In this document: positions 1,472 through 13,987 of the stretch, one piece after another | How positions within the stretch are numbered: the first letter of the stretch is position 1 | Layout of the letters: every line of letters starts with the position of its first letter | Source of the DNA: a virus | Strand: one strand, 5' to 3' | Virus genome (UHGV): UHGV-0293321 | Length of the DNA: 16,182 nt | Translations under genes and position numbers: made by a program | The notes under the pieces: generated by a model | Database searches by the model: none | Told to the model about the DNA's origin: nothing | Seen by the model: the letters and a program-made list of their open reading frames with translations, nothing else

Positions 1472-1795
1472 ATGAAGATGCCAGAAAAACATGACCTGTT
1501 AGCCGCCATTCTCGCGGCAAAGGAACAAGGCATCGGGGCAATCCTTGCGTTTGCAATGGCGTACCTTCGCGGCAGATATAATGGCGGTGCGTTTACAAAA
1601 ACAGTAATCGACGCAACGATGTGCGCCATTATCGCCTGGTTCATTCGTGACCTTCTCGACTTCGCCGGACTAAGTAGCAATCTCGCTTATATAACGAGCG
1701 TGTTCATCGGCTACATCGGTACTGACTCGATAGGTTCGCTTATCAAACGCTTCGCTGCTAAAAAAGCCGGAGTAGAAGATGGTGGAAATCAATAA
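1472..1795 (+). CDS. S: Class I holin/antiholin S, lambda-type (107/105 aa dual-start)
   Basis: Translation [39 protein letters not shown]... is essentially identical to lambda S as recalled (one difference near the C-terminus, GGNQ vs GRNQ). Met1-Lys2-Met3 dual start at 1472 and 1478. Confidence 0.95.
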
Positions 1796-2255
1796 TCAAC
1801 GTAAGGCGTTCCTCGATATGCTGGCGTGGTCAGAGGGAACTGATAACGGACGTCAGAAAACCAGAAATCATGGTTATGACGTCATTGTTGGCGGAGAGCT
1901 ATTCACTGATTACTCCGATCACCCTCGCAAACTTGTCACGCTAAACCCCAAACTCAAATCAACAGCCGCCGGACGCTACCAGCTTCTTTCCCGTTGGTGG
2001 GATGCCTATCGTAAGCAGCTTGGCCTGAAAGACTTCTCTCCGAAAAGCCAGGACGCTGTGGCACTGCAACAGATTAAAGAGCGTGGCGCTTTACCGATGA
2101 TTGATCGCGGTGATATCCGTCAGGCTATCGACCGTTGCAGCAATATCTGGGCTTCACTGCCGGGCGCTGGTTATGGTCAGTTCGAGCATAAGGCTGACAG
2201 CCTGATTGCAAAATTCAAAGAAGCTGGCGGAACAGTCAGAGAGATTGAGGTATGA
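1779..2255 (+). CDS. R: Endolysin R, lambda-type lytic transglycosylase (158 aa)
   Basis: Translation [51 protein letters not shown]... is near-identical to lambda R as recalled. Start overlaps the end of S. Confidence 0.95.
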
Positions 2256-8657: not shown

Positions 8658-9911
8658 ATGACTAACCAATTAGCAAAAGACCTTGAAATCATGTTCGAAA
8701 ACTACGTTGAAGGCTTTGAGGCCGCCTGCGTAGTTTCCCGTAACGCTAAAAAATTCCGTCCCGGTGATACAGCAATGCAGCGAGCAGGTGATGTTCTGTA
8801 TCGTCCGCAGCATTACCACATGAACATTGAGGAAGGCCTAGACCTCAGCGGCAAAACGCCAACAGCACTGGTTCAGCGCCTTGTTCCTTCTGTGTTCAAG
8901 GAGCCGAAAAACATTCTGTACACTCTGGATGCGCGTGAAATGCGTGACCCGGAACATAAAACTGAAGCTGGTCGCGCCGCAGGTATGCGCCTTGCTGCAC
9001 AGATTGACTCTGACCTGATTTCCATGGTCACGCAGCGTGCTACTAACGTGATCACGATGGCTGACTCAACCACAGGTACACAGGGTCGTGATTTGTGGAA
9101 CTGTGCGGCAGGCATTGATGCCACCATGACGGCGATTGGTGTACCTCAGGGTATCAACCGTCGCTCTTTCTGGAACCCCTTCAACTACAAAGATCTTGCT
9201 GGCGAGCTTGGTCACCGTGCCTATGCTCAGGGCGCAACCCTGACAGCATACGAAAAAGCGCAGATCCCTCCGGTTGCTTCCTTTGATAGCTACAAGACCG
9301 ATATTTCTGGTCGATTACCGAAAGGAAGCGCTGAATCCTTGACGGTATCAGGCCAACCTGAACACAAGGTTGAAGCGAAAGATTCAAATGGTATGCCAGT
9401 TGATAACCGACAGGGGACTATTACGGTATCTGCATCTGGCTTGCAGGTTGGTGATGCGTTCACCATTGCCGGTGTGAATTCCGTACACCAGATCACAAAA
9501 GATACCACCGGGCAACCGCAGGTATTCCGTGTTCTGGCTGTTAGCGGAACTACCGTAACAATCTCTCCAAAGATTCTCCCTGTTGAAAATGCCGATGTTG
9601 CGAGTCGTCCATATGCAAACGTCGATGCCAAGCCGGCAGCATCAGCAGCAATCACCATTCTCAACAAGAACGCAGCACCTGCTAACCTGTTCTGGGCTGA
9701 TGGTTCTGTTGAGCTGATGTACGGCAAACTGGCGTTCCCGACTGGTCAGGGTCCACAGGTAATGACAGCAACCACCGAGCAGGGCGCTACGCTGATCATG
9801 TCTTACGCCTTCGACCACATCAAAGGTGTAACCACTGCGCGTTTCACCACTCTGTACGGTTGCTCTGTACTGGTTCCTGAATATACGGGCATCGTTATTG
9901 CCGGGCAGTAA
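8658..9911 (+). CDS. Major coat protein (417 aa), P22/Sf6-type
   Basis: AKKF...P near the N-terminus, ITVSASG, FWADGSVEL and overall length parallel P22 gp5 (AKKY, ITVSGAQ, FWADDAIRI) as recalled. GGAG RBS. Confidence 0.9.
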   Translation: MTNQLAKDLEIMFENYVEGFEAACVVSRNAKKFRPGDTAMQRAGDVLYRPQHYHMNIEEGLDLSGKTPTALVQRLVPSVFKEPKNILYTLDAREMRDPEHKTEAGRAAGMRLAAQIDSDLISMVTQRATNVITMADSTTGTQGRDLWNCAAGIDATMTAIGVPQGINRRSFWNPFNYKDLAGELGHRAYAQGATLTAYEKAQIPPVASFDSYKTDISGRLPKGSAESLTVSGQPEHKVEAKDSNGMPVDNRQGTITVSASGLQVGDAFTIAGVNSVHQITKDTTGQPQVFRVLAVSGTTVTISPKILPVENADVASRPYANVDAKPAASAAITILNKNAAPANLFWADGSVELMYGKLAFPTGQGPQVMTATTEQGATLIMSYAFDHIKGVTTARFTTLYGCSVLVPEYTGIVIAGQ

Positions 9912-10592: not shown

Positions 10593-12011
10593 ATGCCGAT
10601 TCAGCAACTTCCGCTTATGAAAGGTGTCGGCAAAGACTTCCGAAACGCCGACTATATCGACTATCTGCCAGTGAATATGTTGGCTACACCCAAAGAAATC
10701 CTCAACAGCAGCGGATATCTTCGCTCATTCCCGGGCATTGCCAAACGCTCTGATGTGAACGGTGTATCTCGCGGCGTCGAGTACAACATGGCGCAGAGTG
10801 CTGTTTATCGCGTGTGTGGTGGGAAGCTTTACAAAGGCGAAAGCGAAGTCGGTGACGTCTCCGGAAGTGGTCGCGTATCAATGGCGCATGGTCGAACATC
10901 TCAGGCTGTAGGCGTTAATGGTCAACTGGTCGAGTATCGTTATGATGGCACGGTTAAAACCGTCTCAAACTGGCCTACAGACAGCGGATTCACGCAGTAT
11001 GAGTTAGGTTCAGTCCGCGACATTACACGCTTACGTGGGCGTTATGCATGGTCAAAAGACGGTACTGATTCATGGTTTATCACTGACCTTGAAGACGAAT
11101 CGCATCCTGACCGATACAGCGCACAATATCGTGCTGAGTCTCAGCCTGACGGCATCATCGGCATCGGAACATGGCGAGACTTCATCGTCTGCTTTGGTTC
11201 ATCGACGATTGAATATTTCTCCCTGACTGGTGCAACCACCGTTGGTGCTGCTTTGTATGTCGCACAGCCATCACTGATGGTGCAGAAAGGCATTGCCGGG
11301 ACTTACTGCAAAACGCCGTTTGCTGATTCGTATGCGTTCATCAGCAATCCGGCAACAGGTGCGCCTTCTGTGTACATCATCGGTTCCGGTCAGGTATCAC
11401 CAATCGCCAGCGCGAGCATTGAGAAAATCCTCCGCTCCTACACTGCTGATGAACTGGCTGATGGCGTGATGGAATCGCTGCGATTTGATGCTCATGAGTT
11501 GCTGATTATCCACCTTCCGCGCCATGTACTCGTATACGACGCATCTTCAAGCGCCAATGGTCCGCAATGGTGTGTATTGAAAACAGGCCTGTATGACGAT
11601 GTGTACCGCGCTATCGACTTCATTTACGAAGGCAATCAGATAACGTGCGGCGATAAGCTGGAGTCCGTGACCGGGGAATTGCAGTTCGATATCAGCAGCC
11701 AGTACGACAAGCAGCAGGAACACCTGCTGTTTACTCCACTATTCAAAGCAGATAACGCCAGAGTTTTCGACCTTGAGGTTGAATCGTCAACTGGCGTTGC
11801 GCAGTACGCCGACCGCCTGTTCCTCTCTGCAACCACTGACGGCATAAATTACGGACGTGAGCAGATGATTGAGCAGAATGAACCGTTCGTTTACGACAAG
11901 CGTGTTTTGTGGAAGCGAGTAGGGCGCATCAGGAAAAATGTCGGCTTCAAACTTCGCGTTATCACGAAGTCACCTGTAACTCTGTCTGGCGCTCAGATAA
12001 GGATTGAGTAA
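10593..12011 (+). CDS. Tail hub/accessory protein, P22 gp10-like (472 aa)
   Basis: Length equals P22 gp10 and the position between gp4 and the needle fits. Assignment by synteny and size; sequence not recalled in detail. Confidence 0.75.
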
Positions 12012-12859
12012 TGGCGGATTCATCACTGAATAATCCTGTAGCGGTTCAGGCTACGCGCCTTGATGCTTCAATTTTGCCACGCAATATATTCAGCCAGTCT
12101 TACCTGCTGTATGTCATTAATCAGGGGGCTGATGTAGGCGCAATTGCCGGGAAGGCAAATCAGGCTGGTCAGGGCGCTTATGACGCGCAGGTAAGGAACG
12201 ATGAGCAGGATGTGATTCTCGCTGACCATGAGCAGCGAATTTCTGCTGCGGAAGCAACGCTTGTTAATCATGAGGAGCGAATCAGCCAGGCAGAATCAAC
12301 TCTTCAGGACCATGAAACACGAATCGCTCAGAATGAAAGCGATATTGCGTCGCTTGATACCAGAGTTCAGTCGCTGGAATCGCAGGTTTCAGACCATGAA
12401 ACGCGCATCGATGCTCTGGAGTATGCAACTACTCGCAAGAAGTCAGAGGTTGTTTACTCTGGCGTATCTGTAACCATCCCGACAGCGCCGACCAACCTTG
12501 TTAGCCTGCTGAAAACGCTCACGCCGTCATCCGGCTCGTTGGCACCATTCTTCGACACTGTTAACAACAAGATGGTTGTGTTCAACGAGAACAAAACCTT
12601 GTTCTTCAAGCTGTCGATCGTTGGGACGTGGCCCAGCGGAACAGCCAACAGGTCAATGCAGCTAACCTTTTCCGGCTCTGTTCCTGACACGTTGGTCAGC
12701 AGTCGTAATGCGGCGACAACAACCGACAACATCCTGTTAGCTACGTTCTTCAGCGTGGATAAAGACGGCTTTCTTGCCACAAATGGCAGTACGTTAACCA
12801 TTCAGTCAAATGGTGCGGCGTTTACTGCCACAACAATCAAAATCATTGCGGAGCAGTGA
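12011..12859 (+). CDS. Tail needle (P22 gp26 / Sf6 gp9-like, 282 aa) with trimeric coiled-coil repeats and a C-terminal knob domain
   Basis: N-terminus [36 protein letters not shown]...[28 protein letters not shown] is near-identical to the P22 gp26 N-terminal plug domain as recalled. It is followed by heptad repeats and a ~140 aa beta-rich C-terminal extension, as in the Sf6 needle knob. Confidence 0.9.
12224..12424 (+). repeat. Degenerate ~42 bp tandem periodicity within the needle gene (encodes repeated DHExRI coiled-coil units)
   Basis: GACCATGAG/GACCATGAA and AATCATGAG units recur at 42 bp spacing (12224, 12266, 12308, 12392), encoding DHEQRIS, NHEERIS, DHETRIA and DHETRID. Confidence 0.5.
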
Positions 12860-13338
12860 TGGAAATAAAGCTCATCGATAATCCGGTGAAGCTTGCAGAA
12901 TTCCTCAACAACCCGGCAAACACGGGAAATATCGTAGACATTGGAGATAAATACTACATCAAGACTGATGCGGTATATCTCGGCATCTACGAAGGATTAG
13001 TGCTGGCTGGAGTTCATGAAGTGCGTAACTTCTGGCATAGCGTTGTTGAATGCCATGCTGTGTACGACCCCGGATTCCGTGGCGAATATGCACTGCAAGG
13101 GCATCGATTATTCTGCAAATGGCTTCTCGAAAACTCACCATTTCTTAACAGCATCACCATGGTTCCTGACACCACCAAATACGGACGGGCAATTATCCGT
13201 TTGCTTGGCGCTACCCGTGTTGGTCACCTTGATGATGCTTATACCAGCAATGGAAAGCCTGTAGGCATCACGATTTATCAGTTACCGCGCTCAAAATACG
13301 AGGAGCTAAAGAATGTTAATTTTCCAGATTGCCAATAA
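12859..13338 (+). CDS. Protein in the P22 gene-14 slot (159 aa), function uncertain
   Basis: ATG at 12859 overlaps the needle stop (TGATG). The track's 12856 start is GTG. Positional assignment only, between needle and ejection proteins. Confidence 0.5.
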   Translation: MEIKLIDNPVKLAEFLNNPANTGNIVDIGDKYYIKTDAVYLGIYEGLVLAGVHEVRNFWHSVVECHAVYDPGFRGEYALQGHRLFCKWLLENSPFLNSITMVPDTTKYGRAIIRLLGATRVGHLDDAYTSNGKPVGITIYQLPRSKYEELKNVNFPDCQ

Positions 13339-13987
13339 GCACCTCAGCAAAGCTGTTTACTGCAAAGGCGGCAGTGATGGCGGTTCAAAAGCCCAGGCAC
13401 GCGCAACTGAAAAGGGTATCGAATTGCAGCGTGAAATGTGGCAAACGAACATGCAAAACCTAGCACCGTTCACGCCACTCGCTCAACAGTACGTATCAGA
13501 GTTGCAGAATCTTTCCTCTCTTCAGGGGCAAGGTCAGGCGCTTAACCAGTATTACAACTCCCAGCAGTATAAAGACCTTGCAGGGCAGGCGCGCTATCAG
13601 AGTCTGGCAGCAGCAGAGGCAACGGGTGGATTAGGCTCTACAGCAACAGGAAACCAGTTGGCAGCAATCGCACCTACACTCGGTCAAAACTGGCTGTCAG
13701 GTCAGATGAACAACTACAACAATCTGGCAAATATCGGCCTTGGTGCTCTTACCGGTCAGGCAAACGCCGGACAGAACTACGCTAACAACGTCAGCCAATT
13801 GTATCAACAGCAGGCGGCAGCAGCGGCAGCAAATGCGAATAAGCCTTCAGGCCTACAGAGTTTTGCTACAGGTGCCATTGGTGGGGCCGCATCAGGTGCA
13901 ATGATTGGTAGTGCAGTTCCTGTTATTGGGACTGGTATTGGTGCTCTTGCTGGCGGTGTTATCGGCGGTCTTGGATCATTGTTTTAA
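13313..13987 (+). CDS. Ejection (internal virion) protein, P22 gp7-slot (224 aa)
   Basis: AGGAG RBS at 13301-13305. Q/N-rich central region and Gly/Ala-rich hydrophobic C-terminal segment (AIGGAASGAMIGSAVPVIGTGIGALAGGVIGGLGSLF), typical of membrane-active ejection proteins. Synteny with P22 14-7-20-16. Confidence 0.6.
   Translation: MLIFQIANKHLSKAVYCKGGSDGGSKAQARATEKGIELQREMWQTNMQNLAPFTPLAQQYVSELQNLSSLQGQGQALNQYYNSQQYKDLAGQARYQSLAAAEATGGLGSTATGNQLAAIAPTLGQNWLSGQMNNYNNLANIGLGALTGQANAGQNYANNVSQLYQQQAAAAAANANKPSGLQSFATGAIGGAASGAMIGSAVPVIGTGIGALAGGVIGGLGSLF

Follow-up and report, generated by a model that had tools for sequence, protein, structure and literature searches.

The stretch of virus genome UHGV-0293321 analysed here (16,182 nt, hereafter the window) carries a gene that is very probably the Sf6/HS1-type 'knobbed' tail needle of a P22-like (Lederbergvirus) Escherichia/Shigella phage or prophage, with a coiled-coil shaft that changes its length among relatives by gain and loss of whole repeat units (Table 1). 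The ORF call gave an intact reading frame of 282 codons with an ATG start, which shares one nucleotide with the stop codon of the upstream gp10 gene, while the TGA of the needle overlaps the ATG of the downstream gene at 12859. The profile of the Sf6-type knob (PF16532) matches aa 108–282 of the product with an E-value of 1.5e-116 in a Pfam search, and pairwise alignment with Sf6 gp9 demonstrates 94% identity overall, 97% in the shaft and 98% in the knob. The gene order of the window, terL-portal-scaffold-coat-gp4-gp10-needle-gp14-gp7-gp20, is that of a P22-like late/morphogenesis operon, and the location of the needle between the gp10 and gp14 homologues is common to the window, Sf6 and P22. 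The gp10 tail hub forms the channel that is plugged by the needle (PMC3741392, PMC9728967). Proteins 99% identical to the needle carry the name 'tail needle knob protein', matches under the same annotation are present in 1162 of the 5426 E. coli genomes that are complete, and hundreds of E. coli prophages have the gene annotated in RefSeq. There is nothing unusual about this copy, and the gene is already known from two knob crystal structures, a Pfam family and a RefSeq name. Three small ORFs, at 12068–12271 (−), 12228–12473 (+) and 12454–12801 (−), were treated as chance occurrences given the strong homology of the needle frame. An Rfam scan of the window gave no match.

Table 1. Coordinates of the tail needle gene of the window, its domains and repeat units, and the neighbouring genes
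Feature	Position	Strand	Basis or remark
gp10 tail hub (PF11134), upstream neighbour	10593–12011	+	E-value 2e-299
Sf6-type tail needle gene (Sf6 gene 9 / P22 gene 26 homologue)	12011–12859	+	282 aa plus stop
Plug / tail-hub-binding domain (aa 1–60)	12011–12190	+	Identity to P22 gp26 and Sf6 gp9; gp26 PDB matches
N63-x-x-Q66-D67 polar-core motif	12197–12211	+	Alignment; putative role from P22 gp26
Coiled-coil shaft, putatively trimeric, 11 unbroken heptads (aa 63–139)	12197–12427	+	a/d register
Repeat unit 1	12224–12265	+	Crossover partner of unit 2 in 268-aa and 296-aa alleles
Repeat unit 2	12266–12307	+	Partner of unit 1 in crossover
Repeat unit 3	12308–12349	+	Crossover partner of unit 5 in 254-, 310- and 338-aa alleles
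Repeat unit 4, degenerate	12350–12391	+	Forms the 84-nt block with unit 3
Repeat unit 5, transition into knob	12392–12433	+	Periodicity, repeat comparison, allele junctions
C-terminal knob (aa 142–282), predicted TNF-like jelly-roll trimer with putative L-glutamate sites	12434–12856	+	~98% identity to 3RWN and 4K6B
gp14 homologue (DUF2824), downstream neighbour	12859–13338	+	E-value 1.9e-63

The N-terminal plug is 87% identical to P22 gp26 (52/60 residues aligned) and 80% identical to Sf6 gp9 (48/60), and the PDB matches of the N-terminal half of the needle are P22 gp26 chains, including 8EAP_B (aa 3–64). An earlier note on this DNA, made from its letters alone, had called the plug almost P22-identical; the homology with gp26 stands, whereas 'almost identical' overstates the value of 87%. 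In published work the N-terminal domain acts as the channel plug (PMC3741392, PMC9728967), and by analogy with P22 gp26 (2POH, 3C9I) the same function may be expected here. Residues N63, D64, E65, Q66 and D67 are invariant in the alignment of the window needle with Sf6, P22 and 720R6. In P22 gp26 the NxxQD motif coordinates Ca2+ (PMC13580157), and the corresponding residues of the window needle may also bind this ion. Besides the plug and the polar-core motif, the window needle has in common with gp26 the first two DHExRI units of the shaft, a shaft length of 11 heptads and the gene position, but the shafts are only 33% identical (23/70) and the C-terminal tip of P22 is unrelated to the knob.

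The closest known system is Sf6 gp9 (3RWN), which has the same length of 282 aa, the same 11 heptads and DHExRI motifs at the same positions, as well as a knob identical in 138 out of 141 residues. The differences are the three knob substitutions and the plug, which is closer to P22; similarity to Sf6 at the DNA level starts at about nt 152 of the window gene. The window needle is a mosaic allele with a plug-domain ancestry unlike that of Sf6. The needle of the E. coli prophage HS1 (4K6B, 317 aa) possesses a near-identical knob and the same plug-shaft-knob architecture, but its shaft comprises 16 heptads and is built from other unit sequences (DHETRITAAETELA and similar).

In a PDB search the knob is about 98% identical to the Sf6 and HS1 knobs (3RWN and 4K6B, E-value about 1e-89). 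Comparison of aa 142–282 with the C-terminus of P22 gp26 revealed no similarity (local score of 34 vs 30 ± 5 for shuffled sequences); a P22-type tip domain (gp26 aa 141–233) was not recognized in the needle, the PDB alignments of gp26 ending at about aa 137–144. These results bear out the claim of a beta-rich C-terminal domain of ~140 aa absent from P22 gp26: in the proposed alignment with P22 gp26 and Sf6 gp9, it matched the Sf6/HS1 knobs and did not align to the gp26 tip. The published knobs have a TNF-like fold with L-glutamate as a ligand, for which the contact residues are listed (PMC3741392). A TNF-like fold is also predicted for the window knob, where all six contact residues (E146, K200, S248, D250, L255 and K277) are retained as in Sf6, pointing to putative L-glutamate sites.

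The same note had taken the knob for a likely host-range determinant, and this part lacks support in view of the data on P22 with an HS1 knob, the tailspike mutants of Sf6 and the near-invariance of the knob. We consider it improbable that the knob is a receptor-binding domain that recognizes a specific outer-membrane component and sets by its variation the strains infected. Such a role would fit, according to PMC3741392, the resemblance of the fold to the TNF-like receptor-binding knobs of adenovirus and PRD1 and the location of the knob where the virion first contacts the membrane, as well as the occurrence of knobbed needles in Escherichia and Shigella phages exclusively (PMC3741392) and the presence of related knob domains at protein C-termini in T4-like, Vi01-like and other phages. 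However, when P22 is given the HS1 knob it infects Salmonella efficiently (Leavitt et al. 2013, PMC3741392), a needle with a foldon tip is also functional, and mutations expected to destroy L-glutamate binding did not visibly affect virion function (PMC3741392), whereas the mutants with expanded host range in Sf6 map only to the tailspike (PMC9400499). Leavitt et al. considered a role of the needle tip in host specificity unlikely, reported that the tip affects the kinetics of DNA delivery, and found at most 4.9% divergence across 69 knobs (PMC3741392). Across 74 genomes we observed knob identities of 96.4–100%, a range biased upward since the 80 loci with the highest knob similarity had been taken, next to tailspike receptor-binding parts that fall into 58 unrelated clusters. 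For a determinant of strain-level specificity, one would expect the reverse of a near-invariant knob beside diverse tailspikes. Neither diversity tracking the host nor published swaps that alter host specificity were found for the knob, and its function as a host-range determinant is not supported. The length class of the needle does not track the length or type of the tailspike either (medians of 679 and 683 aa, Mann-Whitney p = 1.0, with complete tailspikes in only 9 members of the 317-aa class).

With the register anchored on P22 gp26 (I133 = a, L136 = d; PMC4786415), the a/d pattern of the shaft is unbroken over its 11 heptads, with N L I L I L I I V V I at the a positions and Q H A H A H N L L H L at the d positions, as in a continuous coiled coil; its trimeric state is putative, by analogy with the known needles. 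The Sf6 shaft also has 11 heptads, and the published range of heptad number is 11–16 (PMC3741392). The motif [D/N]HExRI, with Ile in the a position of the core and His in the d position, occurs at aa 72, 86, 100 and 128, while a degenerate version (SLDTRV) stands in the unit at aa 114. Base matching of the shaft DNA at lag 42 is 0.48, compared to 0.29 ± 0.03 in codon shuffles (z = 6.3), and none of 2000 shuffles reached this value, even as the maximum across all in-frame lags. The second-best lag is 84, the protein signal is highest at lags 14 and 28, and a repeat search identified four copies with spacings of 42, 42 and 84 nt. Together with the five 42-nt units, this periodicity confirms the view of the shaft as a series of 42-bp quasi-repeats with periodic DHExRI motifs; the opposite outcome of the suggested self-comparison, no periodicity, did not occur. 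Pairwise, the units have 15–26 of 42 nt in common (36–62%) and exact in-register runs of 3–11 nt, including the 11-nt run GACCATGAAAC in units 3 and 5. Tandem Repeats Finder (TRF) with a minimum score of 30, applied to positions 11800–13000 and to the whole window, reported no array in the needle gene because divergence among the repeats is too great. For units of such age and divergence, 'quasi-repeats' is the fitting word. Arg is encoded by CGA in three out of four DHExRI units, while this codon makes up 14% of the Arg codons in ten structural genes; its sharing among the units hints at their common descent.

Among 120 homologues, needles vary from 254 to 345 aa and their shafts form a ladder of whole heptads (59, 73, 87, 101, 108, 115, 122, 136, 143 and 150 aa), the difference in total length to the 282-aa needle being divisible by seven in 113 cases. 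The comparison of repeat number across relatives, which the earlier note had proposed as a check, thus yielded a whole-heptad series, and its range of 7–20 heptads is wider than the published 11–16. The steps between natural alleles are whole units of 14 or 28 aa, and for five alleles the DNA contains hybrid units that put the exchange in DHExRI-coding microhomologies of 6–11 nt. The 84-nt block of units 3 and 4 is duplicated in loci L001 and L002 and triplicated in L006. In the 310-aa allele the doubled block is 100% identical, as seen in two independent assemblies, whereas the 338-aa allele has three blocks, of which copies 2 and 3 open with a hybrid of the 5' part of unit 5 and the 3' part of unit 3, indicating an exchange inside CATGAAACGCG. 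The reciprocal hybrid of units 5 and 3 is present in the 254-aa allele (3 sequences). The products of exchange between units 1 and 2 are the 296-aa allele, a duplication with its junction in CATGAG (3 contigs), and the 268-aa allele, a deletion with its junction in AGCGAAT (11 distinct sequences, >25 contigs). The 331-aa allele was found in 5 contigs, and the 338- and 345-aa alleles come from one short-read assembly each, where the assembler may miscount three identical 84-nt copies. The rare alleles are carried, among others, by the assemblies GCA_044416865.1 and GCA_900523235.1 (310 aa), GCA_025636725.1 (338 aa) and GCA_013855085.1 (296 aa) and by ERR11477502 (268 aa). A probe for the 84-nt duplication junction of the L006 type had no single-piece match in complete E. 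coli genomes; all rows with 100% coverage were two-piece matches, in which the search had merged pieces of units 3 and 4 in their normal order into one place. A laboratory counterpart of the 310- and 338-aa alleles is the engineered elongated gp26 fibre (4LIN, 300 aa), with which aa 74–143 of the window needle align twice, the second time at residues 141–210, but this protein is artificial, has a P22 backbone and lacks the knob. We take it to have been designed as a duplication of the gp26 helical core. Text searches of the literature found no account of unit-wise shaft duplication, with Bhardwaj et al. 2009 (PMC2713385) and 2011 (PMC3162447) outside their coverage.

It is highly improbable that the 42-nt periodicity is an imprint of the heptad coiled coil on codon choice, with the lengths arising from unrelated indels or swaps of shaft modules. 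The lack of a TRF array, identities of 50–62% between units and the 7-aa periodicity expected of any coiled coil would all agree with such an imprint, and the contrast of 282 vs 303/317 aa, a large part of the diversity in length, indeed follows types of shaft sequence that are moved as modules. However, the signal is strongest at 14 aa or 42 nt and not at 7 aa or 21 nt (0.48 vs 0.37), the motif D/N-H-E-x-R-I recurs with CAT and CGA codons in common, and the differences between near-identical alleles are exact whole units, with hybrid junction units that need inter-unit exchange. For the rare alleles, this explanation is ruled out by the junction sequences.

The dominant needle lengths are 282, 303 and 317 aa, and the others are rare. 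The protein clusters of 282 aa (P0026) and 317 aa (P0039) contain 3620 and 1430 members, respectively, and about 116 viral contigs sampled with a knob-only query have needles of 282 aa (91) and 317 aa (26) exclusively; this query was used instead of the full-length protein, which retrieved 282-aa genes only, its ranking favouring ungapped alignments. A third, divergent type of shaft sequence is likewise exactly 282 aa long. The claim that DNA repeats allow slippage to change needle length holds in essence, as seen from the whole-unit alleles and their junctions in DHExRI-coding microhomologies, with the limits that the units of the window are too diverged for frequent slippage and that the variants are rare. 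A contingency locus, where high-frequency slippage switches needle length within a phage population as in phase variation, is extremely improbable: unit-wise gains and losses do happen, the perfect 84-nt duplication of L001 and L002 should ease further change and the three copies of L006 fit a step from two to three, but perfect or near-perfect head-to-tail DNA repeats are absent from the window (no TRF array, units 36–62% identical, exact matches not longer than 11 nt), thousands of sequences are dominated by only two or three classes of length, and only two occur among the viral contigs.

The most plausible scenario remains a knobbed needle with occasional exchange of whole shaft units. From published work on near-identical proteins, three chains would make one needle, whose N-terminal ~60 residues would close the gp10 channel and retain the packaged DNA, whose residues 63–139 would wind into a three-stranded coiled coil 11 heptads long, and whose residues 142–282 would fold into a TNF-like knob that has three L-glutamate sites. 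On contact with the outer membrane during infection, the needle would be expelled, its tip probably influencing the speed of DNA delivery and not the choice of host. The short in-register microhomologies of the units would permit misaligned exchange, by replication slippage or unequal crossing-over within one genome or between two, and whole units would occasionally be gained or lost with the reading frame and heptad phase kept. We infer that rare length alleles are the outcome of this process, while selection may hold most needles at 11, 14 or 16 heptads. At the window allele such exchange should be infrequent because the exact in-register match does not exceed 11 nt and TRF recognizes no array.

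As an annotation, the needle gene has little weight, being an unremarkable member of a family with solved structures, a Pfam entry and a RefSeq name. The near-invariance of its knob beside hypervariable tailspikes provides genome-scale support for the experimental view that the knob lacks a specificity role, and host-range prediction or engineering in these phages should aim at the tailspike. It is possible, although we regard it as rather unlikely, that needle length is a selected, tunable trait, and that the 14-residue DHExRI cassettes, which put a layer of His at alternate d positions of the core, are maintained as microhomologies in register. If so, misaligned exchange would give a correctly phased trimer two or four heptads longer or shorter, and P22-like phages would step between 11, 14 and 16 heptads to suit the dimension of the host envelope or the kinetics of ejection. 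The needles of 7–20 heptads, including paired duplication and deletion products of whole-unit exchange, represent a natural allelic series for relating needle length to DNA-ejection kinetics and envelope penetration.

The needle gene belongs to a late operon of P22-like (Lederbergvirus) type, from a phage or a prophage, in the order large terminase, P22-type portal, scaffold, P22 coat, gp4, gp10, needle, gp14 homologue, gp7 and gp20, with the Q antiterminator, holin, lambda R-type lysozyme and Rz genes farther upstream. Its start codon shares one base with the stop of the upstream gene, and its stop overlaps the downstream gene's ATG at 12859. The top whole-window matches are Escherichia phages vB_EcoP-720R6 (720R6), Kapi1 and CUS-3. 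One ORF is in effect the R lysozyme of phage lambda (PDB 1AM7, E 2.6e-105), yet has no Pfam match at E <= 0.001, which is a gap in the Pfam result and not a novel gene.

Features of the window that bear on the needle gene and its surroundings
Feature	Position	Strand	Remarks
Needle ORF	12011-12859	+	ATG start, 282 codons, intact
gp10	immediately upstream of needle		PF11134, E 2e-299
gp14 homologue	immediately downstream of needle		DUF2824
Shaft units 1-5	12224-12265, 12266-12307, 12308-12349, 12350-12391, 12392-12433		unit 4 degenerate
His of DHExRI units	H73 12227-12229, H87 12269-12271, H101 12311-12313, H129 12395-12397		core position d
Clusters of megablast match ends	12011-12240 and 12387-12412
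Lambda R-like lysozyme ORF	1779-2255		158 aa
Tandem repeat within gp7 ejection-protein gene	13808-13831		period 9, 2.5 copies
Tandem repeat near coat gene end	9850-9875		period 13, 1.9 copies

Residues 108-282 belong to the Pfam family PF16532, "Sf6-type phage tail needle knob" (E 1.5e-116). In the PDB search, the knobs of Sf6 gp9 (3RWN, E 1e-89) and of the E. coli prophage HS1 (4K6B) match residues 130-282 with 2-3 substitutions, and the P22 gp26 tail-needle entries 2POH, 3C9I, 4ZKP, 4LIN and 8EAP match residues 1-137/144. A gene of the E. coli YP3 prophage shares 98.6% DNA identity with the needle gene, which is matched in 1162 of 5426 complete E. coli genomes; its RefSeq name there, "tail needle knob protein", is also that of 99%-identical database proteins. 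In every respect that can be judged from sequence, the protein corresponds to an Sf6-type knobbed tail needle; a P22-type tip was rejected, since the knob has no similarity to the P22 C-terminus. The anatomy proposed in the earlier note (a gp26-like plug, a periodic shaft and an extra C-terminal knob) is borne out by PF16532, the PDB matches and the heptad register. What that note observed is confirmed, and its interpretation is partly supported: anatomy and length variability stand, whereas the proposed host-range role does not. The gene was already known.

The plug had been described as almost P22-identical; it is indeed closer to P22 gp26 than to Sf6 gp9, but the identity over residues 1-60 is 87% (80% with Sf6). 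Since the remainder of the protein is 97-98% Sf6-like and DNA similarity to Sf6 begins at about nucleotide 152 of the gene, this needle allele is a mosaic. The C-terminal domain is missing from P22 gp26, as claimed: its local alignment to the P22 C-terminus scores 34, versus 30 +/- 5 for shuffles. Neither an alignment of this kind nor a lack of periodicity, the two outcomes that the earlier note had named against itself, was found. The knob retains each of the six L-glutamate contact residues listed in PMC3741392.

Megablast matches of other phages and prophages begin or end in clusters at gene positions ~35, ~142-152, ~200-224 (a conserved 13-residue segment and the first DHExRI unit), ~321 and ~377-402 (the last DHETRI unit). 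This clustering marks module junctions where plug, shaft and knob are reassorted. Many E. coli O157:H7 chromosomes (H109-H118) match the gene at nucleotides 321-849 only, with 94.9% identity, in keeping with the small, needle-bearing remnant of a P22-like prophage that Leavitt et al. (PMC3741392) noted in >100 E. coli genomes.

The knob had been proposed as a host-range determinant, and several lines of evidence speak against this role. Leavitt et al. 2013 (PMC3741392), who solved the HS1 knob structure, reported that P22 carrying the HS1 knob infects Salmonella efficiently, that a needle with a foldon tip remains functional, and that virion function is not visibly affected by mutations predicted to eliminate L-glutamate binding. 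Their conclusion was that the tip is unlikely to act in host specificity and that it affects DNA-delivery kinetics, with K+ efflux as the readout. Sf6-type knobs, present in 69 of 164 P22-like genomes, diverge by at most 4.9% and are confined to Escherichia and Shigella phages (PMC3741392), and experimental expansion of the Sf6 host range mapped to the tailspike alone (PMC9400499). Among 74 genomes with complete needle and tailspike genes, the knobs are 96.4-100% identical (median 99.3%), a value biased upward by the picking of loci through knob similarity, whereas the receptor-binding parts of the tailspikes fall into 58 clusters, with 99% of pairs lacking meaningful similarity. The near-invariant knob does not fit the pattern of a diversity-bearing receptor-binding protein. 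Needle length class shows no relation to the length of the tailspike (median 679 aa in one class and 683 aa in the other, p = 1.0), with complete tailspikes for only nine 317-aa needles. The knob may still have a residual role in its native hosts, in contact with a conserved envelope component.

The claim that the shaft is built of 42-bp quasi-repeats is well founded. At lag 42, the matching-base fraction of the shaft DNA is 0.48, compared with 0.29 +/- 0.03 after codon shuffling (z = 6.3), a value attained by 0 of 2000 shuffles, whichever in-frame lag is taken; the next strongest signal is at lag 84, and lag 21 is weaker (0.37). A repeat search recovered four copies spaced by 42, 42 and 84 nt, and the D/N-H-E-x-R-I signature recurs at residues 72, 86, 100 and 128, with a degenerate unit (SLDTRV) at 114. 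The units have 15-26 of 42 nucleotides in common, their longest in-register exact run is 11, and Tandem Repeats Finder reported no array in the needle gene; to judge from their sequences, the units are old. The short tandem repeats in the gp7 gene and near the coat gene end both score low and probably have no significance.

Among the best 120 homologues (cluster representatives, all with PF16532), needles measure 254, 267, 268, 282, 285, 288, 296, 298, 303, 309, 310, 316, 317, 324, 331, 338 or 345 aa, with 75 representatives at 282 aa and 24 at 303 aa, and the offset from 282 aa is a multiple of seven in 113 of them. Between fixed anchors their shafts span 59, 73, 87, 101, 108, 115, 122, 136, 143 or 150 aa, and form a ladder with whole-heptad steps between 7 and 20 heptads. 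The only off-register shafts are those of P0005 (309 aa), P0106 (285 aa) and P0034 (316 aa); these genes could belong to defective prophages, or the discontinuities could be tolerated. In P0005, on a 5.03-Mb chromosome, 27 aa are duplicated, which amounts to three heptads and six further residues; six-residue insertions reportedly create beta-layers in coiled coils (PMC4786415).

Comparison of near-identical alleles in 14-residue register revealed that units 3-4 are missing from the 254-aa allele and present twice in the 310-aa and three times in the 338-aa allele, that units 1 and 2 are fused in the 268-aa allele, and that the 296-aa allele has one additional unit between them; in the HS1-type lineage, another 28-aa block is duplicated in the 331- and 345-aa forms. 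We aligned the DNA of five length alleles in 42-nt register. The duplicated 84-nt blocks are 100% identical. Copies 2 and 3 of the 338-aa allele start with GACCATGAAACGCGAATC, in which the 5' end of unit 5 runs on into the 3' part of unit 3; this places the exchange within CATGAAACGCG; the reciprocal hybrid GAACATGAAACGCGCATC is found in the 254-aa allele. The unit added in the 296-aa allele combines the 5' part of unit 2 with the 3' part of unit 1, joined within CATGAG, and the 268-aa allele has the 5' part of unit 1 and the 3' part of unit 2, joined within AGCGAAT. Thus, both duplication and deletion products of misaligned exchange occur naturally for unit pairs 3/5 and 1/2. For pair 3/5 both junctions lie in one and the same microhomology, as true reciprocal products should, and for pair 1/2 they lie in adjacent ones. 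The shortness of all these microhomologies (6-11 nt) points towards replication slippage or short-homology recombination, and the sequences would fit either.

Several rare alleles recur and are not one-off errors: the 268-aa allele in 11 distinct sequences (E. coli and S. flexneri, >25 contigs), the 254-aa in three sequences, the 331-aa on five contigs, the 296-aa on three and the 310-aa in two independent assemblies. The 338- and 345-aa alleles come from one assembly each, and a short-read assembler could miscount a triple 84-nt repeat. In one contig with the 268-aa allele, a 181-aa HNH homing-endonuclease-like ORF (NUMOD4 + HNH_3; L005:963-1508) separates gp10 from the needle gene; neither the window nor the other loci examined have it.

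In a length-agnostic, knob-anchored sample of viral contigs (about 116 distinct loci), only two lengths occur, 282 aa at 91 loci and 317 aa at 26; in the protein collection, the clusters of P0026 (282 aa) and P0039 (317 aa) have 3620 and 1430 members. Units are gained and lost, but rarely, and the proposed repeat-mediated length change is essentially right as whole-unit alleles with hybrid junctions but not as a fast slippage process. Phase-variation-like switching was rejected, as the diverged units of the window are poor substrates and two lengths dominate; the gene also lacks the characteristics of a tandem-repeat contingency locus. Four loci (L144, L132, L123, L159) carry a shaft of a third type, very different in sequence (DHEIRLASAEAKIQ DHETRITNAEAAIV GLDSRLTTAENDID ...), on the same knob, in a needle of exactly 282 aa like the Sf6 type. 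This equal length hints at selection on length rather than sequence, and needle length looks to be held to a few preferred values.

Publications or curated databases already cover the knob, through two crystal structures and a Pfam family, along with the plug-shaft-knob architecture, the varying number of heptads (11-16 heptads, 220-320 A; PMC3741392) and the experimental case against a host-range role. Whole-unit exchange junctions and the 7-20-heptad range, for which no explicit description was found in the literature searched (a set that did not extend to the most relevant paper, Bhardwaj et al. 2009), are a modest elaboration and not a discovery.

With the register taken over from P22 gp26 (I133 = a, L136 = d; Hartmann et al., PMC4786415), residues 63-139 form 11 unbroken heptads, the number also published for the Sf6 and P22 shafts (PMC3741392), with N L I L I L I I V V I at a and Q H A H A H N L L H L at d. 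The N63-x-x-Q66-D67 motif, which in P22 gp26 coordinates a core Ca2+ ion (PMC13580157), is invariant among the window, Sf6, P22 and 720R6 needles. Each DHExRI unit places Ile at a and His at d, and His occupies 4 of the 11 d positions. We found no discussion of such residues in the needle literature examined. Each would form a layer of three histidines within the trimer, and these layers might make the shaft sensitive to pH or metal.
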